This document shows positions 341 through 35,107 of a stretch of DNA of 43,549 bases, one piece after another; positions within the stretch are counted from its first letter, which is position 1, and every line of letters starts with the position of its first letter. Source of the stretch: a virus (Duplodnaviria > Caudoviricetes). The DNA is taken from IMG/VR virus record IMGVR_UViG_3300017766_005792, positions 1 through 43,549 of that record; one strand, given 5' to 3'. The translations under genes and the position numbers were made by a program. The notes under the pieces were generated by a model. It searched no databases and had not been told where the DNA came from. It saw nothing but the letters and a program-made list of their open reading frames with translations.

Positions 341-803
341 CGTGGAGGCACCCAGCACCGCCCGACCGGGGATCTTTCTATTTCAGCAGGTCTGAGCGAG
401 CAGCGCGAGCGACCGCTAACGAGGTGCAGGGGTATTTTCTACGCGGGCCTCAGAATATCCCATTTCAGCGTGTGGGGGTGGGTGTGTATGAGAACCTGTA
501 GCTCGCCCGCGCCCCAAAAATCCCCCGTTTCACCATATTTATTTTCGCCGGCGGGGCGCCGTAAACGGGCGCCGAAATAATTCCCTGGGCTGGGTCGGGT
601 CTCGTGTGTGGGCTCGGCCTCAGAACTTCGTGTTTCACCGTGTAGGGGTCCTGTGTATGTGTGGCAGGGGGAAACACCAGCTCAGAGCGACATGGGCCAG
701 GGCGCGTTTCAGGCTGTAGGGGCGGGGGCGTTTGCTACCACCCGGGGTCCTGGGGAAGCCCTACGGCGTGCGACGGCACACGCCGCACGCCGCAACGCGG
801 GAA

Positions 804-826
804 GCCCCCACCTTCCGGGTGGGGGC
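804..826 (-). terminator. GC-rich hairpin closing the early operon (weak U-tract)
   Basis: GCCCCCACC-5 nt-GGTGGGGGC just downstream of the stop of 834..1037; only TT follows on the minus strand. Confidence 0.45.
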
Positions 827-833
827 GCTTCGT

Positions 834-1037
834 TCATCTTCTGGTGAGGTTCCGCCAGAAGAGGGAGAACCCAACCCAAGCCAGCGGAACCGTGACCAGC
901 GCCGCGCCGGTCCGGTACCCTCCCAGAATCTGGGAGGACACCTTGTCCACTCCCTCTCCGAGCGACGCACCGAGCGCCGTGAAGAGGGTGATGAAGAGAA
1001 CCCAGAACACCGTCATGACCACTTCGTCTACTTTCAT
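834..1037 (-). CDS. Small membrane protein, two predicted TM helices (67 aa)
   Basis: Two hydrophobic stretches; SD AAGGA within the upstream repeat element. Confidence 0.75.
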   Translation of the reverse strand: MKVDEVVMTVFWVLFITLFTALGASLGEGVDKVSSQILGGYRTGAALVTVPLAWVGFSLFWRNLTRR

Positions 1038-1127
1038 TCTTCGTTTCCTTTCTTCTGGTGGAAGAGCCCACCCTTCAGGACGGGAAGCGTTCCCGCTCTG
1101 AAGGGTGAGCCCCTCTTGCGAGGGGCT
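1038..1127 (-). repeat. Structured intergenic element, copy 1
   Basis: Minus strand: AGCCCCUC-GCAA-GAGGGGCU, CACCCUUCAG..CGGGAA-CGC-UUCCCG..CUGAAGGGUG, GGCUCUUC-CACCA-GAAGA, then SD AAGGA. Confidence 0.9.
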
Positions 1128-1131
1128 GCGT

Positions 1132-1218
1132 TCATCTGAGGAAGAGCCAGAAGGGCCCGAACCAGAGAACGGTTCCGATTGTGATACCCATTGCCAACTC
1201 GCCTACTTCCTTCAACAT
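1132..1218 (-). CDS. 28-aa hydrophobic peptide MLKEVGELAMGITIGTVLWFGPFWLFLR (not in ORF track)
   Basis: Translated by hand; fills the gap between element copies 1 and 2; same SD context (AAGGAAACGAAG-ATG) as the neighbouring gene. Confidence 0.7.
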   Translation of the reverse strand: MLKEVGELAMGITIGTVLWFGPFWLFLR

Positions 1219-1310
1219 CTTCGTTTCCTTTCTTCGTTGGTGGAAGAGCCCACCCTTCAGAGCCTGCCCACTTGCAGACCCTGAAGGGTGAGCCCCTCTT
1301 GCGAGGGGCT
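1219..1310 (-). repeat. Structured intergenic element, copy 2
   Basis: Near-identical flanks to copy 1; the apical stem is replaced by GGUCUGC-AAGUGG-GCAGGCU, which still pairs. Confidence 0.9.
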
Positions 1311-1315
1311 CTCTT

Positions 1316-1513
1316 TCAGAAGGGGAGGTGGTCGGGGCTCCCCTCGACCTCGACCCCCACTTCTTCTTCTGGCCAAATCAGGGACCCGTCGGGCCCCTCG
1401 ATGTACCCGATATCCATGAGCTGGAGTCGAATATCTTGGTTGTACTCCCGCCAAGCGTCTGCATGGGGGTCACCACAGTAGAAGCCCTCTTCGTCGTACT
1501 CGTAATCGTCCAT
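1316..1513 (-). CDS. Very acidic 65-aa protein ending in DHLPF
   Basis: ATG at 1513 after SD AAGGGGAG; 19 D/E versus 2 R and no K. Confidence 0.75.
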   Translation of the reverse strand: MDDYEYDEEGFYCGDPHADAWREYNQDIRLQLMDIGYIEGPDGSLIWPEEEVGVEVEGSPDHLPF

Positions 1514-1615
1514 GTTTTCTCCCCTTGGTTTGGTGGGCCTCACTGTGAGGACCCACCCTTCAGAGCGGGAAGCGTTCCCGCCCTGAAGGGTGGGCCCTCC
1601 CTTGCGGGAGGGCCC
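1514..1615 (-). repeat. Structured intergenic element, copy 3 (divergent)
   Basis: GGGCCCUCCC-GCAA-GGGAGGGCCC, ACCCUUCAG-GGCGGGAA-CGC-UUCCCGCU-CUGAAGGGU, GGGUCCUCA-CAG-UGAGGCCC. Confidence 0.9.
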
Positions 1616-1622
1616 TGCCTTG

Positions 1623-2720
1623 TCACCCTGCCTTAGTGACCCAAGCCGCTTCCCATGCGGCTTCCCCGAGGTTATTCATGGCCTTCAGGTCCCTCACGTT
1701 CAGGACCTGCCATAGAGCCCCTCGGGCAATCCGCATCGCGGCTTGCACCTGCTTCCGTGTCGGACCGTTTCGGTCCGACCCCTCGCTTTCCAGATTCTGA
1801 ATCGCGAGGAGTCGCTTCGGACCGTAGTGTCCGAAGGGGAGCTTTTCCATCTTCCACCGTGTCAGCTTCGCGACGGTCCCGTACTCGACCGGACCGTTTT
1901 CCCGAAGGATGTCGGACAGCGTGTGCTCCGACCACTTCCCGAGGGTCTCGACGAATCCCCGTGCGCCCCGACGCTTCACGTCAGCCCACACGGTCTTCAT
2001 CGCTGTCCCGAAGTACTTGATTCCCTCGGGGGCTGCCTTCCGATCGTTTCGCTGAATCGTCAGCGACTCTCCCGTCAGCCGCCCCTCCGTGTCGTACCGC
2101 CTGAGCGGCACAACCTGAAGCCAGCCGTTCCAGACACAGAGTCGGACGAATCCAGCCACAATCGCGATTCCGCAGTCGTATGGGTTCCACAGACTCGGAC
2201 CGTCGACCTCCCATGGCTTGACCCCGAAGCAGACGTTGCCGTCTTCGTCGAAGACCTTGCCGTCTTCCGGGAGCCAGTCAGGGGCTTCGAAGCCCCATCC
2301 CTCGCGAAGTCGAATCAACTCCGCGTGTTCCGTCGGGAGCAGACCCTGCCCGAGCTTGGGCTCGTCGTACCGGGATGCGTGCCACGCGGCTTTCCCGATG
2401 AAGTCAAGGACCCCGTCTTTGAGAGGCGGCAGGAGCCGTCGGGGTCCGTAGACCCCTGCGGGAAGCGCCGTTTCTCTCAGGTGCCAGCCCTCTCCGCGCT
2501 TGCCAGCGGCAAACGCGTCAAGGACTCGCTCAAGGTCACGAGCCGTGACTTCGGGATTTTCGACTGCCTCCCCGAGCCTATTCAGAAGCACGCGCTTGGA
2601 CTTGGTATCCAAGGCGCGGCTCAGAACTGCCGAGCGGGAAAGCGGGAGGGGCTTCGGACGGCTCACGGTACTCAGACCGTCAGCCGCCGCCTTTGCTGCG
2701 CGTTTCTTGTAGTCAGGCAT
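1623..2720 (-). CDS. Hypothetical protein (365 aa), first gene of the putative early operon
   Basis: Long ORF with natural composition, co-oriented with its neighbours; stop lies 7 nt before element copy 3. No recognised family. Confidence 0.75.
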   Translation of the reverse strand: MPDYKKRAAKAAADGLSTVSRPKPLPLSRSAVLSRALDTKSKRVLLNRLGEAVENPEVTARDLERVLDAFAAGKRGEGWHLRETALPAGVYGPRRLLPPLKDGVLDFIGKAAWHASRYDEPKLGQGLLPTEHAELIRLREGWGFEAPDWLPEDGKVFDEDGNVCFGVKPWEVDGPSLWNPYDCGIAIVAGFVRLCVWNGWLQVVPLRRYDTEGRLTGESLTIQRNDRKAAPEGIKYFGTAMKTVWADVKRRGARGFVETLGKWSEHTLSDILRENGPVEYGTVAKLTRWKMEKLPFGHYGPKRLLAIQNLESEGSDRNGPTRKQVQAAMRIARGALWQVLNVRDLKAMNNLGEAAWEAAWVTKAG

Positions 2721-2852: not shown

Positions 2853-2879
2853 AGTCTCATGCCCCGACGCCGTTGTCGA
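2853..2879 (-). promoter_or_regulatory. Possible sigma70-type promoter of the early operon
   Basis: TCGACA -35-like hexamer (2874-2879) followed by a weak -10 (GAGACT/GACTAT); position upstream of boxA fits. Confidence 0.3.
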
Positions 2880-2936
2880 ACAAAGTTTGTAGGCCTATGT
2901 CGTTTCGATTGAAACGCCGCAAACCCGCATACAAGC

Positions 2937-2970
2937 TGGCCCAAACCCTGTTGCGACAGGTTTGGGGCCA
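2937..2970. repeat. Imperfect inverted repeat TGGCCCAAACCCTGT-TGCG-ACAGGTTTGGGGCCA
   Basis: Read directly; could be a terminator-like hairpin for upstream minus-strand genes or a protein binding site. Confidence 0.6.
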
Positions 2971-2991
2971 CACTTGGAGCGTCCCACCCAC

Positions 2992-3080
2992 AAAAATTTC
3001 CCCGTATGCACTTTCAGAATGCCCGTGTAATTATTCGGGAAAAATTCCCCGCATGCACTTTCAGGCCGCGTAATTATTCG
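2992..3080. repeat. Imperfect tandem repeat, two units of about 45 bp
   Basis: AAAAATT(T)CCCCG(T/C)ATGCACTTTCAG...CG(T/C)GTAATTATTCG at about 2992-3037 and 3040-3080. Confidence 0.75.
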
Positions 3081-3158
3081 CGCAGCCCGTAAATACTGGG
3101 AAATTAATCGTTTTTCAGGGTGTATTTTTCTATTTTCTGGGGCCTATTTCTCTCGGCC

Positions 3159-4298
3159 TCAAGCCGTGAGCTTCGTCCCGTCAATCACGCATTTTCCGTC
3201 CTGGATCAAATAAACCGCCGGCTGATTATCTTTCCAGAGGACCCCAAAGCCCTGCTGCCAGTCCGGGAATTGTGACCCCGGCACCGTACCGTCTAGCTTG
3301 GCCAGCGTGCCGCAGCCCATCGAAAATACGGTCTTGCCTTGGGTATTTTCGTCGTAGTGGCGGTGGAACGCCAGCTCCAGGCGGTGGGTGTGGCCGAAAA
3401 TCGTCGATAAATGGTAGGCGCCGAGCATTTTTGCCGCCGACTCCCCTCCCTTCCGGCCAATCAAATGTCCGTGCGTGGCGAAAATCCCTGGCGCCACGGG
3501 TACGCGGGCCCCGTAGGGCCCCGCGTACTCGATTTTCAGCTGCTTTAATCCGAGCAACCCTGGTACGTCGGTGGCCCAAAGCAGTTCAGGGGCATTTTTT
3601 GCCAGATAGTCCCGGAGCCTACGCTCATGATTACCCTCTAAAAGTACGATCCGAGAATTTGGGCAATTAATTCGGAGAGTTTTCAGGAAGTTGTGACCCG
3701 CCTTGATAGCCGTCAGCGTCTGGTGGCGGTGCTTTGGCTCCACCTCCCACCGCGAAAGCGCCGGCAGGTCCAACAAATCGCCCAAAATCACGATTTTCTC
3801 GGGTTGGTAGGCCTTGGCCACCGCCAGAACCACCCCGACGGCCCGCTCGTCGTGGATGGTGCGCCAGTCAAACGTAGGCTCGCCGTTTTCCGCCAAGCCA
3901 GTCTCGCAGGTAAACCCGAAATGCACGTCGGGGATGCAGAGCACCTGCATGGCGGTGCCCAAAACCTCCGCCCGCGGCTCGACGGAAATATTTTCGTAGA
4001 CGGGCCCAGGAATTTTCGCGCCCCGGGCCTTCAGGTGCGCCTTTACCTGAAAATTCCCCGTCGACCACGAATTTACGGTGTAGCGCTCGACCTCGTATTT
4101 TTCGGTGTCGACGGCGGCTTCTTTCAGCAAGGCTTCGAGTCTGCGAATTTCAGAGAGCAAGGCCTCGTAGACCTCGCGCGTAAATTCCCCGACCAACCCC
4201 GGGGCTTTTTTCCCCAGCCGCTCCAGACAACGAGCGTAGGACGGGCGGAACGAGAGGTACCGGTGACCGATGGCTTCGCGGAATTGGCTAAGTTTCAT
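3159..4298 (-). CDS. Calcineurin-like metallophosphoesterase with N-terminal extension
   Basis: Motifs PDVH, LGDLLD, EGNHE, THGH, FGHTH and DWQQGF, typical of phage metallophosphoesterases. Confidence 0.9.
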   Translation of the reverse strand: MKLSQFREAIGHRYLSFRPSYARCLERLGKKAPGLVGEFTREVYEALLSEIRRLEALLKEAAVDTEKYEVERYTVNSWSTGNFQVKAHLKARGAKIPGPVYENISVEPRAEVLGTAMQVLCIPDVHFGFTCETGLAENGEPTFDWRTIHDERAVGVVLAVAKAYQPEKIVILGDLLDLPALSRWEVEPKHRHQTLTAIKAGHNFLKTLRINCPNSRIVLLEGNHERRLRDYLAKNAPELLWATDVPGLLGLKQLKIEYAGPYGARVPVAPGIFATHGHLIGRKGGESAAKMLGAYHLSTIFGHTHRLELAFHRHYDENTQGKTVFSMGCGTLAKLDGTVPGSQFPDWQQGFGVLWKDNQPAVYLIQDGKCVIDGTKLTA

Positions 4299-4668: not shown

Positions 4669-5136
4669 TCAGGATGCAGTAGACCTGAGCATCCACGCCG
4701 TTTTTTCGTGCCCTTCGAGCAGGTCCGTGAGGAAATTAGCCGTCCCCTCGTCCCCAGCCTCCTGGGCCACCTTAATTACCTCACGCAGGTTGCGACAGAT
4801 CGACTCGTGGTCCTCCTTGAGGATCCGAACCATCGTCATCGCGTCCGGGACGCCTTCCTGCTCGGGAATCGAGGCCATCTCGAGGAGGTCCCGCATCGAG
4901 CAAGGGGCCATGTCGTCCAGAGCCCGAATACGCTCCGCGATCGCGTCGATCGACTCAGCGAGGGCCTCGTACTGACCCTGAAACATCGCGTGGAGCTGCT
5001 GAAAAAAGGGCCCCTGCACGTTCCAGTGAAAAGCCAGGGTCTTCGTGTAGACCACGAAGGTGTCGGCGAGGCACCGAGCCAGCTCATCAGCCAGGTCACC
5101 CATCGCGTCCGGAGCAATTCCGATTTCAGCGTCCAT
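4669..5136 (-). CDS. dps: Dps family ferritin-like DNA protection protein
   Basis: FHWNVQGPFFQQLH, DAIAERIRAL, GDEGTANFL and HEKTAWML signatures. Confidence 0.95.
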   Translation of the reverse strand: MDAEIGIAPDAMGDLADELARCLADTFVVYTKTLAFHWNVQGPFFQQLHAMFQGQYEALAESIDAIAERIRALDDMAPCSMRDLLEMASIPEQEGVPDAMTMVRILKEDHESICRNLREVIKVAQEAGDEGTANFLTDLLEGHEKTAWMLRSTAS

Positions 5137-9118: not shown

Positions 9119-9532
9119 TCACTGTGAGGACTTCGGACCCAAACTTTCGGAGGAGGGGTCCGCATTCTCAGTATGCTTCAAGAGCCAGAGCTGGAACAAG
9201 AGACAGCACACCTCGTGAGCAAGGTGTGAGACTCCGGTCTCCGGGTCGTTGGCCTCCCCTTGCAGGCGAGCCACCCGGTGACGGAATCCAGCCGCCTCGT
9301 AGCGCTGCATGGCGTCGGGCACGTGCTTCCAGTTGTCGCGCTCGTACTTCTTCAGGCCGTAGGCCAGGACCTTGACGACTTCTTCGAGCGAGTCCCAGGG
9401 CAGCAGCGTGTAGTCCAGCTTGCCTGCGTCGAACTTGCGACCCTTTACCTCGGGCGGCTGAGGCTCTGCGTAGAACTCCTGCAGTACGGTCCGATAAAGC
9501 TCGGTCAGGTCTGGTCGTCCGTTGTACGTCAT
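9119..9532 (-). CDS. dATP/dGTP diphosphohydrolase domain protein (DUF5664-like)
   Basis: GRKFDAGKLDYTLLP...YGLKKYERDNW...DPETGVSHLAH; ATG at 9532 overlaps the upstream stop. Confidence 0.85.
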   Translation of the reverse strand: MTYNGRPDLTELYRTVLQEFYAEPQPPEVKGRKFDAGKLDYTLLPWDSLEEVVKVLAYGLKKYERDNWKHVPDAMQRYEAAGFRHRVARLQGEANDPETGVSHLAHEVCCLLFQLWLLKHTENADPSSESLGPKSSQ

Positions 9533-10398
9533 GGTTCCACCGACCAGTGAAAGGTGAGAGCCTTCTCCACTTCGCCGAACCCGAGGTGGCGCAGCATGCG
9601 CCAGCCACACCCCTTGGACTCAGGGTCATCTCCGAACTCGGACATGGAAGCGCCGACCGTCAGGGCGTTCATGGGCTCGAAGTAGTTCGTCCAAAAAGCC
9701 ACGTGCTCGAACGGCCCAAGGTGCCCCTCGTCCCACAGGGACTTGAGCTTGCCCATGAACTCCTCGGACACGTCCTCGCGCAGGTAGCTGTCGCGCGCAG
9801 CGCGGGCCACAGCGTAGTAGACGTCCGCCATCTTCGGGTCCGTGCCCTCGAAGTATGGAATGTGAAAGCCACGCGCGACCGGCGTGCTGCCGTTGATGGC
9901 CTCCTTGATGGCCACCGCCAACGCGCGCATCTCCGGCTGTACCTCGTGCTCGACGTCGCGCTGCCGGATCAGGTGCTGAAACGCCTCGACCGCGCCGGTC
10001 ATGGTGCAGCGCGTGATGAGAAAGGGCTCCAGGTAGCGGTTGGCGTGCTGCTTGTGGACGCCGAGCTCGCCCAGCTGCGCCACGAGACGCTTGGACGCCT
10101 CAAGGTGGGCCTCGATGAGGTCCAACGCCAGAGCGTTGTCGTACTCGCTCAATTCCTCCTTGGAGCCCATCCCAGGCTGGTTCTTGCTCAACTTCTCCGG
10201 GACGTAGAAAGCTCCGCCCTCCATGAGCTCAAGCTGCCGCTTGACCGGGATGGCCCGGCTGCTTGAGGTGCTCTTGCGGATGAGCCCGTAGGTCATCACC
10301 TGCGGGTGGATGAAGCGCGGGTAGTCGCAGGACAGCGTCAGGATGCGCCGCCCTTGGCAGATGGAATCAGCAGCAACACGAACTTTGATTACGCTCAT
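9529..10398 (-). CDS. thyX: Phage-type FAD-dependent thymidylate synthase (ThyX/Thy1)-like protein with atypical motif
   Basis: YPRFIH...SSSRAIPV, HKQHANRYLEPF, QPEMRALA and HLGPFEHVA match the phage Thy1 subfamily. Confidence 0.8.
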   Translation of the reverse strand: MSVIKVRVAADSICQGRRILTLSCDYPRFIHPQVMTYGLIRKSTSSSRAIPVKRQLELMEGGAFYVPEKLSKNQPGMGSKEELSEYDNALALDLIEAHLEASKRLVAQLGELGVHKQHANRYLEPFLITRCTMTGAVEAFQHLIRQRDVEHEVQPEMRALAVAIKEAINGSTPVARGFHIPYFEGTDPKMADVYYAVARAARDSYLREDVSEEFMGKLKSLWDEGHLGPFEHVAFWTNYFEPMNALTVGASMSEFGDDPESKGCGWRMLRHLGFGEVEKALTFHWSVEP

Positions 10399-10952: not shown

Positions 10953-11497
10953 TTCTTCCTCTTCAGTTTGACTATCACAAGTCGCTTCCTGCGACCTCGA
11001 GGAGTCTCCGTCCACCGCAGGTCGAACACTATCTTCCCATTGAACCGGTCGCGCGGGATCAGATTGGCTAGCGAGTGCTTTTTGTAGCCCGCTGCGTCAG
11101 CTAGCTCGTCTAGGGTCATGCCAAGTTGCGCGACCGCCAAGCACTTCCTGATGGATATTTTCTGCTTCCGGGTGGACGACGGGAGGCCCAAGCGCTGAGC
11201 TTTGTTGCGGACCGTCTTCTCCAAGGCGCCGAACCTATCGGCGATCTCCCTGATGTAGACGATGTCGTTGATACCTGCTTCTCGCAGGGCATCGTGAATG
11301 GCCTCGTGCCACGCCCTTGAGGCAGCGAAGTAGCGCTTCAAGATAGGTGCGTAGGGTTTTCTCCGCCCCCGTTCGAAGAAGTCTCGGTACGTCATGTCCG
11401 CCATCGCGGCCCAGTTATCCAAGCGAATGGGTGGATCGTCCGGGCCCTTCTGGTCGACCCATTCTGAGAGCTCCTGAATTACTTCTTCGAAGGTCAT
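10949..11497 (-). CDS. Putative DNA-binding protein, paralog A (two HTH-like segments)
   Basis: IREIADRFGALEKTVRNKA and GMTLDELADAAGY. Confidence 0.75.
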   Translation of the reverse strand: MTFEEVIQELSEWVDQKGPDDPPIRLDNWAAMADMTYRDFFERGRRKPYAPILKRYFAASRAWHEAIHDALREAGINDIVYIREIADRFGALEKTVRNKAQRLGLPSSTRKQKISIRKCLAVAQLGMTLDELADAAGYKKHSLANLIPRDRFNGKIVFDLRWTETPRGRRKRLVIVKLKRKK

Positions 11498-12300
11498 TTC
11501 TTCTCCAAGAGGCGACCTGTCAGCAGCGCGAGCTCGTGCAGGTTTGAGTATTTGAAGTTGATATGGCCGGAGCGACCGGTCGGTGCGACGCTGACCTCAG
11601 CCCCGAACCGCTCACCTAGCTTGCGTGAGATCAAGTCGAACAGGCTCTTGTACGGGCTCTCGCCTGCCAGCCTGTTCTCCTTGTGCTTCTTCTCTTTCGC
11701 ACCCTTCTTAGCCTGCCGGACCCACGCCTCGGCGTCGAGGGTCCCCATCCCCTTTAGCATCAGGGAGACGAGCTCGTTGCGAAGCGGGCCGTCGTCGATC
11801 GTCAGGCAGATTCGCGCTTGGCGTGCCGTGAGGTCGCCGCTGATGACCAGCCGCTGGTGCTCATCCGAAAGGGTAAGCAGTCGGAAGCTGTTGGAGACGT
11901 AGGGGGCTGACTTGCCTATCAGGTCAGCGATCTGCGACGGCGGGTACTGGTGCTCGTCGCGGAGTCGGCGCAGCGCCAGGGCTTCCTCGATAGGGTTCAG
12001 GTTGGACCGCTGCGCGTTCTCGATGACGGCCACCTCGAAGGCTGAGGTGTCGTCAAAGTCCCTAATGATGACAGGGACGTGCGTCAGCCCAGCCATCTTC
12101 GAGGCGCGCCACCGTCGCTCACCGGCCACGATTTCGAGCTTGGACCTGCGGCGCCTGACGAGAATCGGGAGCAGCACGCCCTTGCTGGCGATGGACTGAG
12201 AGAGGGCCTTGAGCTCCTCCTCGTCGAAGTGCTGCCGTGGCTGCGCCGGGTCTGGGTGCAGGTCATCTACGGGACAGGAGATAAGGATCGGCTCGGACAT
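11494..12300 (-). CDS. parB: ParB/Spo0J family protein
   Basis: QPRQHFDEEEL..L..SI...GVLLPILVR, IVAGERRWRA, ENAQRSNLNPIEEA, HTH and C-terminal dimerisation region. Confidence 0.95.
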   Translation of the reverse strand: MSEPILISCPVDDLHPDPAQPRQHFDEEELKALSQSIASKGVLLPILVRRRRSKLEIVAGERRWRASKMAGLTHVPVIIRDFDDTSAFEVAVIENAQRSNLNPIEEALALRRLRDEHQYPPSQIADLIGKSAPYVSNSFRLLTLSDEHQRLVISGDLTARQARICLTIDDGPLRNELVSLMLKGMGTLDAEAWVRQAKKGAKEKKHKENRLAGESPYKSLFDLISRKLGERFGAEVSVAPTGRSGHINFKYSNLHELALLTGRLLEKK

Positions 12301-13401: not shown

Positions 13402-15927
13402 ATGGCAAAGCGAGTACCGATCGGAACCGAGTCCACCCGCGCTGACAACTCCGTCTGGAAGAAGCTCGATACGGGCTGGAAACAGCTTCAGGACGGGGAT
13501 GATACCAGCCGCTCCAAGTTCAAGGTCACGGGCGAGGCCGACCCTAGCAGGGACGTCGAAAAGGGCCTTTGGGCCAGCATGCAGGAGAAGTACGACCTCG
13601 ACGGGCGAGTCCCGGACGAGTCGGTCCCTCCCGAGCATGTTGAGATCGACTCCGAGGGGGATATCGACTCCAAGCCTGTTCTGAAGTGGAAGAACGCCGC
13701 CGGCAAGGTGATGAAGTCCTACACCCGCGCCTTCCACACCCAGCGCGCCTACGCGCTCCACAAGGAGTGCGGCAAGTATCACTCTAAGATCATGAAGGCC
13801 ATGGATACCCTTGAGGGCATGATGAACAAGCAGGACGCGGGTGCCGCGACTGCTTACGCCTCCATGATTACGGGCCACCGCCCCAGTGTCTTCATGTCCC
13901 TCACCCCCGACAAGATGCGGGTCTACCGGGACAACAAGGACGCCAAGAAGTCGCACGCGCTCGACTACTTCATCGAGAAGGCTGACACGCGCGACGCAAT
14001 GCACCCGAACCGCTTCCACTTCATGGTGGAGCACCCTTCGCAGGGCGCCTTTATCGCCAACGTCTACGACCCAGCCCTCTCGGATTACGCCAACGGCGGC
14101 GGCTCGTTCGCTGAGCCTACCGAGGCATTCGCCACCGTCGGGCTGCAGGACGTGAACTTCAAGGTCCTTCGCGCCCACGCCAACATGCGCATGGCTGCGG
14201 ACGCCATGTCCAAGAGCGCACCGGTGAGGATGGATGACGTGGACTTCCATCAGGGAATGTCCAAGGTCAACCAAGTCATCATGAACGTCTCGGACGCCGT
14301 CGCTCGCAACTACGGCCACGGTGCTGCTCCGAACGGAATGGTCTATCTGCCCGTCCCCATGTCGGTCGCGGCTGTGGACGAGGCTGGTGGTAGCAAATAC
14401 TGGCCTGATACCTTCAAGAAGCGTGAGCCTTACGTCGAAAATCGAGGACTTGACATGGACGACATCACTTCTGAGCTCGAGGCCATGGGTGAGGACGTTG
14501 CAGAAGATGAGGGTGCCGACACCGCTGAGGAGGATGTCGAGAAGGACATCACTGATGGCGATCAGGACATCATGAAGTCGGAGTACGCTGGCGTCAATTT
14601 TACTCCTCCTGCGGGGGTTCGCGCGGCGTGTCGCGCTGGTCTGAAGCTCAAGGAGGAGGGTCACGGCGGTAAGGGTCTCGTTGCCGCCACTGTTGCGTGG
14701 GCTCGACGCCTCGCCGCTGGTCAGAAGATCTCGCCGGCCAAGGCCCGCAAGATGAACGCTTGGTTCGCTCGCCACTCGGTCGGCAGCAGCTCTCGTACGC
14801 TCGGCGACAAGACCTCGCCGGCTTGGGTGGCTTGGCAGCTCTGGGGTGGCAACGCCGGCAAGGCGTGGTCGGCCAAGCTCGTGCGCCAGATGGAGTCGCG
14901 CGAGGCGAAGAAGTCCATGCTCGATGACATCAAGATCGAGCCGATCGAGAAGCCCGAGTTCTCGGTTTACCTTTCCTCCAAGTACCTCAAGGACGTCAGC
15001 CCGGAGATTCTCAAGAGTCTCTACGAGCACGTGAACAAGGAGCAGCCATGCGATACCTCTCCCAGCGAGGAAAAGATCTCCTCGAGCGAGCCCTCTCCTA
15101 CCCCCTCCCCGAGCCCGATCGAAAAGTCGATCTCGACGATGACGACTGCGGAAGTGAGCTCGAGGACTGCTTCCCCCTCCCTCGCGCCTTCGCCCAGCCC
15201 GGCAACATGCGAAAAGCCCCCCTCCCAGGGCCCCGCGCATCTGCTGGCCGAGCCCAAAGTCCAGCAGGTGCTGGCAGCCAGCGTTCTCGCCAGCTCGCGC
15301 GGGACAATCCCGCCGCAGTCAGTCGTTGAGGCTCTGCGCTGCGCTCTCCTGAGTGACCTCGATGGGATGGTGGCGGCGCTTTCGAAGGCCGGCGCTACCC
15401 CGGGCCCGCAGGCTGCTCCCGAGGGCTCTGTCTCGCGTTACGCGGACGGTACGGTCGTCGAGAAGCGCGGCGGTAAGTGGCAGGAGGTCAAGACCGACAA
15501 GGGTCGACCTGACGCTGACAGACCAGGTGCCGGTGGTGGTAAGAAGTCCGACCCGAAAACCAAGCGCCGCTCGGCCAAGAAGCTCCTCTCGGTCTACCGT
15601 CAGAAGCTTGACACCCTGAGCCGTCAGGGTGGGTCGAAGGGTGAGATCGCTGCGCTCAAGACCAAGATCAAGACCCTGAAGCAGAAGATGCGCGGCATGG
15701 CCAAGGCTGCCGACCCGTTCGCTGCTTGGGAGAAGGATCGCGTCCGCGAGTGCGTCCGCAAGTCGGCCACCTACTGCAAGTACCTCGGGTACAATAACCC
15801 CGGCCAGCTTCTGTATGCCGTCGCCGCAGGTGACACTCCCGCTGACGTCACCGTCGCTGTGAAGGCCGCTACCAAGTACCTCGGCGAGAAGTTCGGCCTC
15901 GTGCTCGAGAAGGAGCTCGCAAAGTGA
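13402..15927 (+). CDS. 841-aa multi-domain putative head-associated protein with divergent topoisomerase IB-like N-terminal domain
   Basis: SD GGAAAGG; strong GC3 bias; overlaps the portal start; TopIB-like motif order; a second module PPAGVRAA...WQLWGGNAG that I recall from phage head-gene neighbourhoods. Confidence 0.75.
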   Translation: MAKRVPIGTESTRADNSVWKKLDTGWKQLQDGDDTSRSKFKVTGEADPSRDVEKGLWASMQEKYDLDGRVPDESVPPEHVEIDSEGDIDSKPVLKWKNAAGKVMKSYTRAFHTQRAYALHKECGKYHSKIMKAMDTLEGMMNKQDAGAATAYASMITGHRPSVFMSLTPDKMRVYRDNKDAKKSHALDYFIEKADTRDAMHPNRFHFMVEHPSQGAFIANVYDPALSDYANGGGSFAEPTEAFATVGLQDVNFKVLRAHANMRMAADAMSKSAPVRMDDVDFHQGMSKVNQVIMNVSDAVARNYGHGAAPNGMVYLPVPMSVAAVDEAGGSKYWPDTFKKREPYVENRGLDMDDITSELEAMGEDVAEDEGADTAEEDVEKDITDGDQDIMKSEYAGVNFTPPAGVRAACRAGLKLKEEGHGGKGLVAATVAWARRLAAGQKISPAKARKMNAWFARHSVGSSSRTLGDKTSPAWVAWQLWGGNAGKAWSAKLVRQMESREAKKSMLDDIKIEPIEKPEFSVYLSSKYLKDVSPEILKSLYEHVNKEQPCDTSPSEEKISSSEPSPTPSPSPIEKSISTMTTAEVSSRTASPSLAPSPSPATCEKPPSQGPAHLLAEPKVQQVLAASVLASSRGTIPPQSVVEALRCALLSDLDGMVAALSKAGATPGPQAAPEGSVSRYADGTVVEKRGGKWQEVKTDKGRPDADRPGAGGGKKSDPKTKRRSAKKLLSVYRQKLDTLSRQGGSKGEIAALKTKIKTLKQKMRGMAKAADPFAAWEKDRVRECVRKSATYCKYLGYNNPGQLLYAVAAGDTPADVTVAVKAATKYLGEKFGLVLEKELAK

Positions 15928-27383: not shown

Positions 27384-27398
27384 CTCAGTACTTCATTG

Positions 27399-27437
27399 AA
27401 AGGGGCGTCTGTCGTTGACAGGCGCCCCTTTTTATTT
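27399..27437 (+). terminator. Intrinsic terminator after the tube gene
   Basis: GGGGCGTCTGTC-GTT-GACAGGCGCCCC-TTTTTATTT. Confidence 0.9.
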
Positions 27438-31768: not shown

Positions 31769-34700
31769 ATGACTAAAAAGAGGTCCCCGATTTCTCTGGT
31801 CGAGCTTCACCGTCACGAGCGGCCGAAGCCCGTGTTTTTCTCGAGCGAGATCCTCGGATTTCAGTGGACGAGCTCGATTAATCCGCCACACGGGTCGGCC
31901 GCTGTTGCACTCGCCCTGCCGGTCTCCAAGTTCGACTTGGCCATGCCAGGCGACTGGATCGTCGTCAGAAATATCAGGGGCCGCACCGTATTTTTCGGGT
32001 ACGTCACGAGCGTCAGCGACGGCATCTCCATCGGAAATAATAACGCTGTCGTCAGCGACGCCGTTACGGTCCAAGCCGAGACGTGGCTCGACATGCTTTC
32101 GCGCGTCGAGCTCTTGGCCCCACCCGTAAATACTTACCCCGAGAGTATCGGCACGCTTTTTACCCTTCAGGACTACGCCAGGCTGATCGAAGGGTCTCTC
32201 GTAGACCTCACCTTTGGAAATCTCGGCGAGGCCGTCCAGTCGATTTTCCGCTGGATCGCCCGCGTTCGCCTTCCTGAAAGTCTGGGTGGGGGTACGCTGG
32301 GCGACATCATCCCGGTTTCGTACGACAAGAACACCTCGTCGAACTACACCCCTGACCTCGTCGTAGAAGAGCTCCCGACGGCCGGCGCCATGCCGACCCA
32401 CGTCGGATTTACTTCCGTCAGGTCCAACGTCTACCCGATGCTCCGGACCCTTTTCGTTCCAGAGCCTGCCCTCATTGAAATGTTCCCCCACCTCTCCCCT
32501 CCGCTAGAGGAGGTCCCTGACGTCTACGTCGACGAGATTCTCGACCGAGGCGAGAGCTGGAATATCAGGGGTGAGCCGAACATCGACACGGGCACCGACG
32601 ACAACGTCTACACGGTCGATCAGATGCCTCCTGAGATTGCAGGTACGGCAGGGGCGACCAGAAAGCAGTCCATGGTCCTCGAGCGCACGGACCTCACAAC
32701 CTACCTGAAGGCGAGGCCTGTTCTCGTCTACCGGGTCAAGCCTTGGAGAACCCGCCCGCTCCGCCAGAGTCTTTTCGCGGCCGTGGACGAGGAGCGCAGG
32801 TACCGCTCGGTCGAAGAGCTCGTGGATACGAAAAATCCCGAGGACCCGCTCTCGGGAGACTGGGCTCAGCAGCAGATCTTGCAGAACACCTTTGAGAAAA
32901 TCACGTGGGATAAAAAGCTCTTCGCCTTTATCCCAGCCGGCCGTGTCGTTGCTATCCAGCGTACGCGCTCCGACAACGACCGAGTGAACTGCACCTTCAT
33001 GAACCTCTCGGTCGTCACGCCTCAGATTTTCGATCGGGCAGGTCTCCCCGTGAAAATCACGGACGAGATCAGAAAGCACGGCCTCCGGACCTCTAATCCG
33101 ACGTGGCCTTTTTTGATCACCCCCGACGATCCGGTGAAGCAGCAGAATTTTATCTCGTACATGCGTACGATCGCGGCTCAGATCATGCAGTTCTACCACA
33201 GGGGCCACGCTTTCGGCAGCGGTACGGTATCGGTCGCCGGTGGGGCTGACATCGCTGGGCTCGACTATGATGAGGAGCGGAAGGAATTTAAATGGCCTGT
33301 CCAAGCTGGTAGGCCCTTCCAGATCTCTCTCCCGGGGAAAGATTTTTCTGCCTACGCCGAGTCGGTGACTGTGCAGATCGAGGTCAGGGGTACGACGGTG
33401 GTTGGTTCGACCACGGTCCAGTACTCGCGCGGTCTTTATGGCGAGGACGAGGACACCTTCCGTGATTCTCTGATTCCTCTCACGAACGCTCAGTTCGGTA
33501 TGATTCAGACGAGCAAGTCAAAGGCCTTGGCGCGACAGCTCACCACGGGTGGTGGACAGCCTGACCCCTTCGCGAATTGTACGAGCGGTCGTCCAGCTAC
33601 CGATCCGACTTTTAGTCTCTCGAAGCTGACGGACGGATCCCCTGCCACCGACCCATTCGACCCGTATTACAAGCCCGCGTGGCTCAAGACGTGGGTCCTT
33701 AGTCGCTGCGACTCTAGGGTCGCCGCAACCATGACGGATTATTTCGACGGAGCCTCCGGAAATAATGTCGCGCAGCCTGCCTCGCCCGGTATGATCCCAC
33801 TCTATTACAAGGACATGGTCTGGTTTACGGCCGCTGCTGCGTACGTGATAGAGCGCTACTGGAGGATCGCCTATCCCGAGGCGACCGTTAGGATCACCTC
33901 GTGGTTCAGAAATGAGACCCGCCACATTTTCTCCGGCGCTATCGACATCTCGGTCCGGAAAAATATCTGGTCGCTCGCTTGGTACCAGAACGGATCCCAG
34001 AAGGGCTCCATCCGTGTTGATAGGGCTGACCCGCAAGACACAATTCAGCAGCAGGCTCAGACGATTCCGCCGGGCGTCGCCCGAACCATAACGGTGGGCT
34101 CTGACCCAACCAATAACATCGTCATCTCGGGTAGCGGGATATCTTCTCAGCACCTCAGGCTGTCCTACAAGAACAACGTGGTGCAGGTTTTCGACGTCAG
34201 CACCACCATTGGCGGCTCAGGGACCTTCCTCCGTGGAAAGAAAGTCCTGCCTGACGGTAATTATGAGGGCGGTGGCCCTGCGACCATTGGTCGAGGGTCT
34301 AACGACCAGATTACTTTCGGCGACGCGGCTATCCAGCTCTATATCAACACCGACATGCTTCCCGCGCTGCAGACGTGGGCAGGCTTTCACGCCATCGCTA
34401 ACGCGGCGAGAATCCCGCGTGGTGGCCGTGGCCTCTACCTTCACGTCAATCCTTGGAATGGGATTCAGGGAACTCACCCGTCGGAGGCAGGCTCGTCGTC
34501 CAGTACTGCGTCTGGCCCAGGCGGCTCGGCGTCTCCGCACTACGACTTGCGGGGAGCTTTTGGGTACGTCGACAGACCCAACCAGTGGGTCCAGTGCGAC
34601 TGGACAGGTGATGGCGTAGACGAAATAGCTTTGGGCGATGCCTCATGGATCAGAACAGGCAAGACGGAACCCAGTGGCGTGCCGCTGTCCAGCCTAGATG

Positions 34701-35107
34701 ATATCTACAAGAACATTGCCGACCCGGATAAGTCCTTGTTCTCATCCTTCACGGCAGGGTCTTTGGTCTTGGGGAAATCCATCCCGCAGGTCATCGTCGA
34801 CATGTACGTAAAGACCCCGAAGGGTGACGGTGCGGTGCCGAGAAAGGATTTTTCTGCCGCGCAAGAAGCGGTCAGGGTGCCTGTCAGGGACGCCATTAAA
34901 AAGTATTTCAGCAAGATCGTGGCGGCGCAGACGGACGCTGGGGTCAGGCAAGTCGACCCGACCCTACATTTGGTCGACAACTCGGTTCCGAATATCCGCC
35001 AGGTCTTGGGATACGAGCAGTCCTGCTTCTATGAATTCCAAGCCCCTGGGCAGAGCTCTTCCCTTTCCGCTCCGACAACTCCTCAGACGCCACTGGTGAA
35101 CCCATGA
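31769..35107 (+). CDS. Baseplate hub-like protein with C-terminal M15-like peptidase and inserted FHA domain
   Basis: Hub-like N-terminus (MPGDWIVVR...VFFGYVTSVS); ITSWFR...H....AIDI and GGRGLY...PHYDLRG motifs; FHA-like segment between them. Confidence 0.75.
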   Translation: MTKKRSPISLVELHRHERPKPVFFSSEILGFQWTSSINPPHGSAAVALALPVSKFDLAMPGDWIVVRNIRGRTVFFGYVTSVSDGISIGNNNAVVSDAVTVQAETWLDMLSRVELLAPPVNTYPESIGTLFTLQDYARLIEGSLVDLTFGNLGEAVQSIFRWIARVRLPESLGGGTLGDIIPVSYDKNTSSNYTPDLVVEELPTAGAMPTHVGFTSVRSNVYPMLRTLFVPEPALIEMFPHLSPPLEEVPDVYVDEILDRGESWNIRGEPNIDTGTDDNVYTVDQMPPEIAGTAGATRKQSMVLERTDLTTYLKARPVLVYRVKPWRTRPLRQSLFAAVDEERRYRSVEELVDTKNPEDPLSGDWAQQQILQNTFEKITWDKKLFAFIPAGRVVAIQRTRSDNDRVNCTFMNLSVVTPQIFDRAGLPVKITDEIRKHGLRTSNPTWPFLITPDDPVKQQNFISYMRTIAAQIMQFYHRGHAFGSGTVSVAGGADIAGLDYDEERKEFKWPVQAGRPFQISLPGKDFSAYAESVTVQIEVRGTTVVGSTTVQYSRGLYGEDEDTFRDSLIPLTNAQFGMIQTSKSKALARQLTTGGGQPDPFANCTSGRPATDPTFSLSKLTDGSPATDPFDPYYKPAWLKTWVLSRCDSRVAATMTDYFDGASGNNVAQPASPGMIPLYYKDMVWFTAAAAYVIERYWRIAYPEATVRITSWFRNETRHIFSGAIDISVRKNIWSLAWYQNGSQKGSIRVDRADPQDTIQQQAQTIPPGVARTITVGSDPTNNIVISGSGISSQHLRLSYKNNVVQVFDVSTTIGGSGTFLRGKKVLPDGNYEGGGPATIGRGSNDQITFGDAAIQLYINTDMLPALQTWAGFHAIANAARIPRGGRGLYLHVNPWNGIQGTHPSEAGSSSSTASGPGGSASPHYDLRGAFGYVDRPNQWVQCDWTGDGVDEIALGDASWIRTGKTEPSGVPLSSLDDIYKNIADPDKSLFSSFTAGSLVLGKSIPQVIVDMYVKTPKGDGAVPRKDFSAAQEAVRVPVRDAIKKYFSKIVAAQTDAGVRQVDPTLHLVDNSVPNIRQVLGYEQSCFYEFQAPGQSSSLSAPTTPQTPLVNP

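Follow-up and report, generated by a model that had tools for sequence, protein, structure and literature searches.

Introduction

Intergenic RNase III sites in phage messages are already known from T7 and SP82, and the T7 sites are cut on a single strand at internal loops. General support for such single-strand cutting is given in PMC3867540, according to which the early polycistronic message of T7 contains five RNase III signals; RNase III sites in SP82 early RNA are described in PMC4838370. Here, we analyzed three repeat elements in a phage genome fragment that share several properties with the T7 signals (model substrate R1.1), namely an intergenic stem in a polycistronic phage message, a length of at least about 22 bp, A-U/U-A at position 2 of the proximal box, and a 2-nt staggered cut, which in the elements is predicted. 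As with T7-type signals, the elements are located between the genes of a co-directional run and on the sense strand. A GCAA loop is found in both, but the loop sequence is dispensable according to PMC1540722. Unlike the T7 signals, the elements are near-identical repeats forming a GC-rich, almost perfect helix with a predicted cut on both strands; the lower half of this helix competes with a hairpin adjoining the stop codon, and caps are predicted on both products.

The Bs-RNase III sites of SP82 and SPO1, with their 5' stabilizer, are similar in that cutting is followed by stabilization of a downstream message with a purine-rich SD region, as described in PMC4838370 and PMC7509114 and as predicted for the elements. 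In these sources the stability is tied to the ribosome-binding site, whereas in the elements a hairpin at the first base and a 3' cap are predicted. A phage BLAST search, by which the comparison was made, revealed no sequence likeness of the elements to the SP82/SPO1 sites. The PeSL cassettes of T4-like phages, as presented in PMC2839356 and PMC4122927, likewise combine a repeated intergenic element ending in an SD and start codon with a variable region of small orphan genes. Close relatives of those phages have different genes beside the element, and in our case it is the ends of contigs that point to the same.

Phage window and minus-strand gene cluster

The window, i.e., the whole 43.5-kb stretch of DNA analyzed, is a tailed-phage fragment. 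Its plus strand encodes portal, capsid, sheath, and baseplate proteins, and its minus strand encodes ParB, ThyX, Dps, and a phosphoesterase. The best GenBank matches of its capsid protein had less than 30% identity. The Dps/ferritin-like, ThyX, and full ParB genes are located at 4669-5136, 9529-10398, and 11494-12300, and 31769-35107 encodes a tail-region protein of 1112 aa that contains an FHA domain. A terminator-like hairpin at 27395-27435, 3' of the tail genes, is conserved in both related records (G002, 13910-13950; G001, 47846-47808).

The elements are found within a cluster of four orphan ORFs in a minus-strand run (2720-834), encoding 365, 65, 28, and 67 aa. Searches of Pfam, PHROG, and NCBIfam yielded no family for any of them. 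The features of the cluster are as follows:

1623-2720, minus strand: ORF of 365 aa without a family, leading the cluster; its UGA stop lies 7 nt 5' of copy 3
1316-1513, minus strand: 65-aa acidic ORF with SD-like AAGGGGAG at 1526-1519; relatives have other genes at its place (loose contig ends at 1517 in run X6 and 1524 in run X1)
1132-1218, minus strand: 28-aa hydrophobic ORF with SD-like AAGGA at 1230-1226, no family
834-1037, minus strand: 67-aa ORF with two hydrophobic stretches and SD-like AAGGA at 1050-1046, last gene of the cluster
758-826, minus strand: GC-rich two-hairpin unit (9-bp and 17-bp) that lacks a U tract, 7 nt 3' of the last stop; the transcript may end here

One clear relative (P0002) of the 365-aa protein was identified, an Atlas search giving no usable match, and two relatives (P0005 and P0006) were identified for the 67-aa protein. 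The small orphan genes suggest that the cluster is an early operon, and it is probably made as a single transcript. A consensus scan of 834-2870, restricted to the sigma-70 type, detected no promoter of this type.

In the leader of the 365-aa gene (2880-2790, minus strand), a weak promoter-like TCGACA-17-GACTAT, below the scan bar, was noticed by eye. It is followed in order by a hairpin, a boxA-like GTTCTTTGAAAACTG at 2820-2806, a long rod with a GNRA-type loop, and the start codon, a layout that resembles an rRNA leader. The boxA-like GTTCTTTGAAA agrees in 10 of 11 positions with the consensus given in PMC5725501; three phage records also contained a looser boxA pattern, 2, 5, and 1 times, and none of four bacterial genomes contained the exact 15-mer. 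The flanks of the cluster (190-760 and 2870-3160) look non-coding and may represent an origin, packaging, or protein-binding region. They contain repeated CTGAAA motifs (7 of the 23 minus-strand copies in the window), a 34-nt repeat in three copies (229, 446, and 616), and many T runs, at 14-17 per kb vs. 2.8 per kb in 760-2870, which hints at a separately acquired module. Segment 616-730 was about 92% kept in run X6.

The unit at 826-758 folds with a z value of -4.0 and is unrelated in sequence to the three elements. It is no further copy of them and does not flip into a single long stem. The covariance model R1 gave no match there, and its RNase III score of -26.5 falls below the bar of -25.5 used in the cut prediction.

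Structure of the spacer elements

The sequence-only reading had placed three minus-strand repeat elements at 1038-1615, and the analysis confirmed them. The folding z values of the three copies on the sense strand were -7.8, -6.0, and -5.2, with none of 200 shuffles folding as well. Copy 3 (1615-1532), copy 2 (1311-1239), and copy 1 (1127-1057) are a real, conserved structured RNA repeat. In each of them, a UGA stop is followed in order by a gap (7 nt in copy 3 and 4 nt in copies 2 and 1), hairpin A, which has a GCAA loop, hairpin B with the boundaries ACCCUUCAG/CUGAAGGGU, the motif CCACCA, a run resembling an SD, and AUG, in agreement with the 4-7-nt gap, the loop, and the conserved CCACCA before the SD that had been described for all copies. 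The parts of the elements are as follows:

1592-1615, minus strand: hairpin A of copy 3 with 10 bp and a GCAA loop, predicted to cap the 3' end of the upstream product
1599-1592, minus strand: 3' arm of copy 3 hairpin A, which is the lower 5' arm of the long stem
1555-1591, minus strand: copy 3 hairpin B, 17 bp; predicted cuts between 1587 and 1586 and between 1558 and 1557; compensated tip variants in run X1
1532-1557, minus strand: downstream arm of copy 3, whose segment 1554-1547 extends B, and an 11-bp hairpin GGUGGG..CCCACC that begins at the cut and is predicted to act as a 5' cap
1290-1311, minus strand: hairpin A of copy 2 with 9 bp and a GCAA loop, located 4 nt 3' of the UGA
1252-1289, minus strand: copy 2 hairpin B, 16 bp, tip replaced; predicted cuts between 1285 and 1284 and between 1255 and 1254
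1239-1254, minus strand: downstream arm of copy 2 (1251-1243) and a hairpin GGUGG/CCACC predicted to act as a 5' cap
1107-1127, minus strand: hairpin A of copy 1 with 8 bp and a GCAA loop, located 4 nt 3' of the UGA; no X6 change listed
1070-1106, minus strand: copy 1 hairpin B, one A-C mismatch; predicted cuts between 1102 and 1101 and between 1073 and 1072; no X6 change listed
1057-1072, minus strand: downstream arm of copy 1 (1069-1061) and a hairpin GGUGG/CCACC predicted to act as a 5' cap

The 3' arm of A can lengthen B by 8, 9, and 9 contiguous pairs in copies 3, 2, and 1, respectively, which bears out the long stem of about 25 bp claimed earlier. The three long stems (25-26 pairs) were the longest hairpins found in the window by a hairpin scan. 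Such an 8-9-pair extension is reached by just 21-24 of the 43,540 9-mers of the window; thus, it is not a product of chance, though a single ancestral origin would account for the rarity. All three copies have the same orientation, and they contain 2, 5, and 4 G-U pairs on the minus strand vs. 0, 0, and 1 on the plus strand. This asymmetry favors a function as sense RNA, as had been argued from the letters. A search of Rfam, in line with the earlier view that the elements belong to no described family, gave no family at the gathering threshold; the best score was 33 bits vs. 97 needed, with a miRNA hairpin model.

The third small hairpin, C, drawn in the sequence-only reading as UCUUC/GAAGA, withstood the analysis in part: it has 5 bp in copies 1 and 2 but is damaged in run X6 by two changes at 1056 and 1055, just outside CCACC. 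No PeSL-type sigma-70 promoter was present in the elements according to the consensus scan of 834-2870, nor a PeSL-type terminator; on the sense strand, a U tract follows neither A nor the long stem nor the third hairpin. A 33-codon ORF (1135-1034, minus strand) runs across copy 1; its beginning overlaps the 28-aa gene at the stop, and its end overlaps the 67-aa gene at the start. Copies 2 and 3 are without an equivalent.

A hairpin placed after a UGA stop could be a recoding signal that drives readthrough, frameshift, or bypass into the next gene. All the stops are UGA, and the spacers (109, 97, and 94 nt) are all 3n+1 in length and open in the downstream frame. However, readthrough would run into a UGA in B in two of the three copies, and each downstream gene has its own SD and AUG. 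The copy-3 spacer in run X6 is 8 nt longer, as seen at a loose contig end, and thus the phase is not kept. Because of this difference in spacer phase, recoding was rejected as very improbable.

Switching between short and long folds

Folding of each copy with its alternatives revealed that the long stem put forward in the sequence-only reading is an available fold, but it accounted for only 0.4%, 0.02%, and 0.3% of the ensemble of naked RNA in the three copies. The long form exceeds the minimum by 3.8-5.4 kcal/mol, and the barriers were estimated at 9-13 kcal/mol, whereas the three-hairpin form makes up more than 99% of the naked ensemble and A folds first. According to these models, the elements are switchable and not bistable at equilibrium, contrary to their initial description.

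Twelve nucleotides past the stop correspond to a ribosome-sized footprint. Blocking 9-12 nt past the stop flipped all three copies to the long stem, and with the 12-nt block the long form had P values of 0.99, 0.84, and 1.0. In a growing chain without the block, partial extension reached P values of 0.45, 0.01, and 0.41. The idea that a terminating ribosome flips the switch was therefore supported in silico, apart from the equilibrium bistability attached to it. On the other hand, the suggestion that the flip serves to free the next initiation region did not hold as a shared purpose. The mean unpaired probability of the region from -18 to +3 increased upon the flip from 0.69 to 0.92 in copy 1, stayed at 0.76 in copy 2, and changed from 0.72 to 0.65-0.79 in copy 3. 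Since the region opens in copy 1 alone, SD release is not a purpose common to the copies.

These values bear on a translational-coupling switch that operates without cutting, in which the upstream ribosome melts A and the long stem frees the next ribosome-binding site, following the RNA-unfolding model of PMC12548453. The flipping of all three copies by the block, the improved SD access in copy 1, and the position of A, at 4-7 nt from the stop in the three copies and at about 4-5 nt in two X1 contigs that have different genes upstream, are what such a switch would require. As in the f1 VII-IX and MS2 coat-lysis couplings treated in that source, a ribosome at the upstream stop is predicted to remodel a hairpin; unlike in those couplings, the remodeled structure lies off the SD in two of three copies, and the predicted output is a nuclease site. 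An SD that is hidden and becomes opened by a ribosome at the stop was seen in silico in one of three copies, while copies 2 and 3, whose SD regions are mostly open already, gained nothing. Moreover, hairpin C is weak and damaged in X6, and coupling leaves both CCACC and the invariant ten mid-stem pairs beneath a variable tip unexplained. We consider coupling without cutting to be a rather unlikely explanation.

RNase III cut prediction

All registers of the stems were scored using pair counts from the 85 E. coli in-vivo sites given in Table S4 of PMC6212723, with a bar of -25.5; the matrix is that of E. coli, which may not be the host of the phage. The best scores of the long conformers of the three copies were -18.8, -20.6, and -21.7. 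Thus, the long stem, which had been suggested as an RNase III substrate, scored above the bar in all copies. However, pair-shuffled stems also passed it (medians from -20.7 to -23.4), and clearing the bar therefore mostly reflects helix length. The real scores were reached by 2.7%, 2.5%, and 17% of the shuffles (p = 0.027, 0.025, and 0.17, the copies not being independent), which suggests a modest sequence-specific RNase III signal. Two ordinary terminator-like hairpins of the window scored -25.1 and -24.7, marginally over the bar.

The best register summed over the copies places the cuts at ACCCU^UCAG / CUGAAG^GGUGG (-62.8, the next being -64.2). For copies 3, 2, and 1 taken singly, it ranked first, second, and fourth, respectively, with a score of -22.8 in copy 1. 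For the central ten pairs alone, this register scored -21.3 and the next one -25.3, a lead of 4 log units. The ten pairs, made up of both proximal boxes plus the two pairs that lie between the cuts, correspond to the block CACCCUUCAG, which is invariant in all copies. Cuts after CAG and at C^UGAAG, which had been guessed initially, gave poorer scores than ACCCU^ and were discarded.

At both proximal-box position 2 sites, the elements have A-U/U-A. This position is presented as the strongest RNase III determinant in PMC1540722, PMC3074117, and PMC6212723 and as the main one in E. coli and Aquifex in PMC1540722, PMC3074117, and PMC11780869. Three of the eight proximal-box pairs are disfavored C-G pairs (lower position 4 and both positions 3).

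With 25-26 pairs, the long form provides the helix of about 22 bp, 11 bp on each side of the cut, yet it accounts for less than 1% in naked RNA. Below the cut, B alone has three pairs; hence, the lower half-site needs the arm of A. Above the cut it has 11-12 pairs, similar to the minimal substrate described in PMC1540722, so that B might be nicked without the opening of A, and gating may be partial or needless. The scores of B alone, which are rough owing to a penalty that we set for unpaired positions, were from -29 to -32.

Predicted ends of the cut products

After the predicted cut, the downstream RNA would start with GGUGG, the complement of the conserved CCACC, a motif expected 0.04 times in 20 nt by chance. 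The GGUGG/CCACC hairpin starts exactly at the first base of the downstream cut. With up to 40 coding nt, its P value was 1.0 in both copy 1 and copy 3 (falling to 0.56 in copy 3 at 60 nt), and when the ORF from AUG on was blocked, it was 1.0 in all three copies. In copy 2, the next ORF, if free, pairs in place of this hairpin (P of the hairpin 0-0.43 at 20-60 coding nt). In the intact RNA, CCACC/GGUGG is absent in copies 1 and 2 (P 0.00-0.02) and partly formed in copy 3. Thus, the predicted cut would explain the conservation of CCACC through its pairing with the first five bases of the downstream product, and the alternative folds are read best as the states before and after cutting. Cutting also raised the predicted SD-AUG access in copy 1 from 0.49 to 0.98. 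The predicted upstream product ends in hairpin A plus 5 nt. Cofolds of the cut products kept 3-4 weak inter-strand pairs and scored lower than the separate pieces by 2.6-3.4 kcal/mol. According to PMC3997798, decay that depends on the 5' end is hindered when this end is paired, and stabilization of RNA by cleavage-derived 3' hairpins is reported in PMC3867540.

The same structures might also act uncut, as an insulator or stabilizer in which A, B, and the third hairpin block exonucleases, pause the polymerase, or serve as a binding site for a protein of the phage or the host, the long stem being a relic of an ancestral inverted repeat. The predominance of the three-hairpin form, the early folding of A, the weak covariation of the extension helix, and purine- and pyrimidine-rich blocks that ease alternative pairings are compatible with this explanation. 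However, the extension keeps its register (8-9 pairs) despite a length change in A, the invariant central block fits the RNase III footprint, and the CCACC/GGUGG pairing becomes possible in copies 1 and 2 only after B is cut. An uncut insulator thus appears unlikely.

Covariation and variants in relatives

Exchange of the A arms between copy 3 and copies 1-2 changed the energies from -24.4/-19.0 to -10.7/-10.8 kcal/mol, a cost of 6-14 kcal/mol, whereas exchange of the downstream arm of the extension helix cost just 1.3 and 2.4 kcal/mol. This indicated that A covaries strongly and the alternative helix weakly. The tip of B, replaced in copy 2, has 3 double changes among the three copies. The earlier claim that the copies covary with pairing kept was therefore upheld for the arms of A and the tip of B, and only weakly for the extension.

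Run X1 is a possible source of the window. Its minor contigs (depth 4-7.5 vs. about 34) contained an additional compensated tip pair, 1568/1578, and in two of them, to which the changes were assigned by depth, the changes create G-U pairs on the sense strand. Placed in the window sequence, the X1 changes kept every stem pair on the minus strand and were costlier on the plus strand; random changes keep all stem pairs 1-2% of the time. In run X6, which comes from a separate study, no change is listed in 1060-1127 of copy 1 vs. 15 listed changes (16 in all) in 834-1170 (rough p = 0.01).

Homologues and genes beside the element

The relatives were represented by short contigs (depth 2.8-7.5) with 30-letter loose ends. 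In run X6, the sequence continues after copy 3 into another ORF (loose end at 1517). The minor contigs of X1 have loose ends at 1524, 1597, and 1616, with two other upstream ends, in which a UGA precedes an A-like hairpin by about 4-5 nt, and one other downstream ORF. In addition, an X1 contig contains a joint, its short side just 30 letters long, in which 307 other letters lie between a copy-3-type end and a copy-1-type start. The four loose ends and the joint, from two runs, agree on gene exchange at the element, which therefore also marks cassette boundaries. Recombination between the repeats may swap the small genes between them.

A pattern scan of metagenomes gave 40 loci, of which L054, on an 83.9-kb contig and identical to the window, was the sole homologue. 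No homologue was found among viral contigs with four DNA patterns (28, 5, and 5 matches examined), none was confirmed there with the 365-aa, 67-aa, and aligned 67-aa proteins, and the four loci obtained by a genome pattern scan were all unrelated. GenBank phages and plasmids contained no homologue of the element. A covariance model of the three copies (R1), of the kind that the first reading had called for, found no fourth copy in 32 sources (the window and 31 others). Five records with an 89-99% identical capsid protein, all of them fragments, are without the region, and the two examined whole hold no such stems. Among the results listed by searches of the openly accessible literature, there was no account of the element or of a ribosome-gated RNase III site.

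In 12 of the 40 metagenome loci, which were selected by the search pattern, we observed a near-perfect palindromic doublet sharing the core CCACCCTTCAGGG. These REP-doublet-like palindromes (L041, L042, L044, L048, L056, L060, L063, L068, L069, L071, L072, and L078) are located on GC-rich contigs and contain GTCCACCCTTCAGGGTG in their arms. With model R1 they scored at most 40 bits on both strands vs. 83-93, and one of the 12 passed a loose filter for A plus the extension, with an unrelated hairpin.

The shared core and, as with PeSLs, the different genes beside the element in relatives may suggest that it is mainly a DNA element, either a domesticated REP-doublet-like palindrome or a recombination boundary, whose pairing is kept by strand switching without an RNA role. 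Bacterial REP doublets are similarly long inverted repeats after stop codons. REP/REPIN sequences have a GTAG/GTTC-type foot before the palindrome and occur in many copies in both orientations. Our elements, in contrast, are three same-strand copies in one operon, with no GTAG/GTTC-type foot before their arms and with strand-asymmetric G-U pairs (11 on the sense strand vs. 1 on the other), to which the variants add new ones. The attC sites of integrons are characterized by an RYYYAAC box. A GTTRRRY box is given for them in PMC9892861; neither box had a match on either strand of 1001-1660. In view of the G-U asymmetry, the single orientation, the absence of attC boxes, and the pattern-selected palindromes poorly matched by R1, a DNA element devoid of an RNA role seems improbable; a role in recombination can nevertheless coexist with one in RNA.

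Proposed mechanism and its implications

From the modeled folds and cut scores, we regard it as reasonably probable that the elements are RNase III processing signals of the T7/SP82 type, by which the message is cut and capped. Host RNase III would cut midway in the 25-26-bp stem and so split the phage message gene by gene. Cuts at the two predicted positions would release a 29-30-nt tip; the downstream piece would then fold GGUGG onto CCACC from its first base as a 5' cap, and the upstream piece would refold hairpin A with a 5-nt tail as a 3' cap. Both refoldings would strip the lower duplex, so that the pieces could part.

Since A is favored over the long stem in naked RNA, a ribosome that terminates 4-7 nt upstream would likely help to open A and thereby complete the site; given that cutting occurs, we put such help at roughly an even chance. 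The complete scheme amounts to translation-gated dicing of the mRNA, in which the ribosome ending on the upstream gene builds the RNase III site, a cistron is cut only once translated, both products cap themselves, and the repeat lets small genes plug in and out as cassettes. This scheme, assembled from model predictions, is a tentative proposal and, taken as a whole, more likely wrong than right.

If true, it would represent a new 80-95-nt module that uses three mutually exclusive pairings, links translation termination to cutting, and protects both ends, and it could serve as a portable part for splitting operons. The set of predictions is exact, comprising the cut positions and three mutant-and-rescue pairs. 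The scheme suggests how phages may keep arrays of orphan genes exchangeable without promoters.
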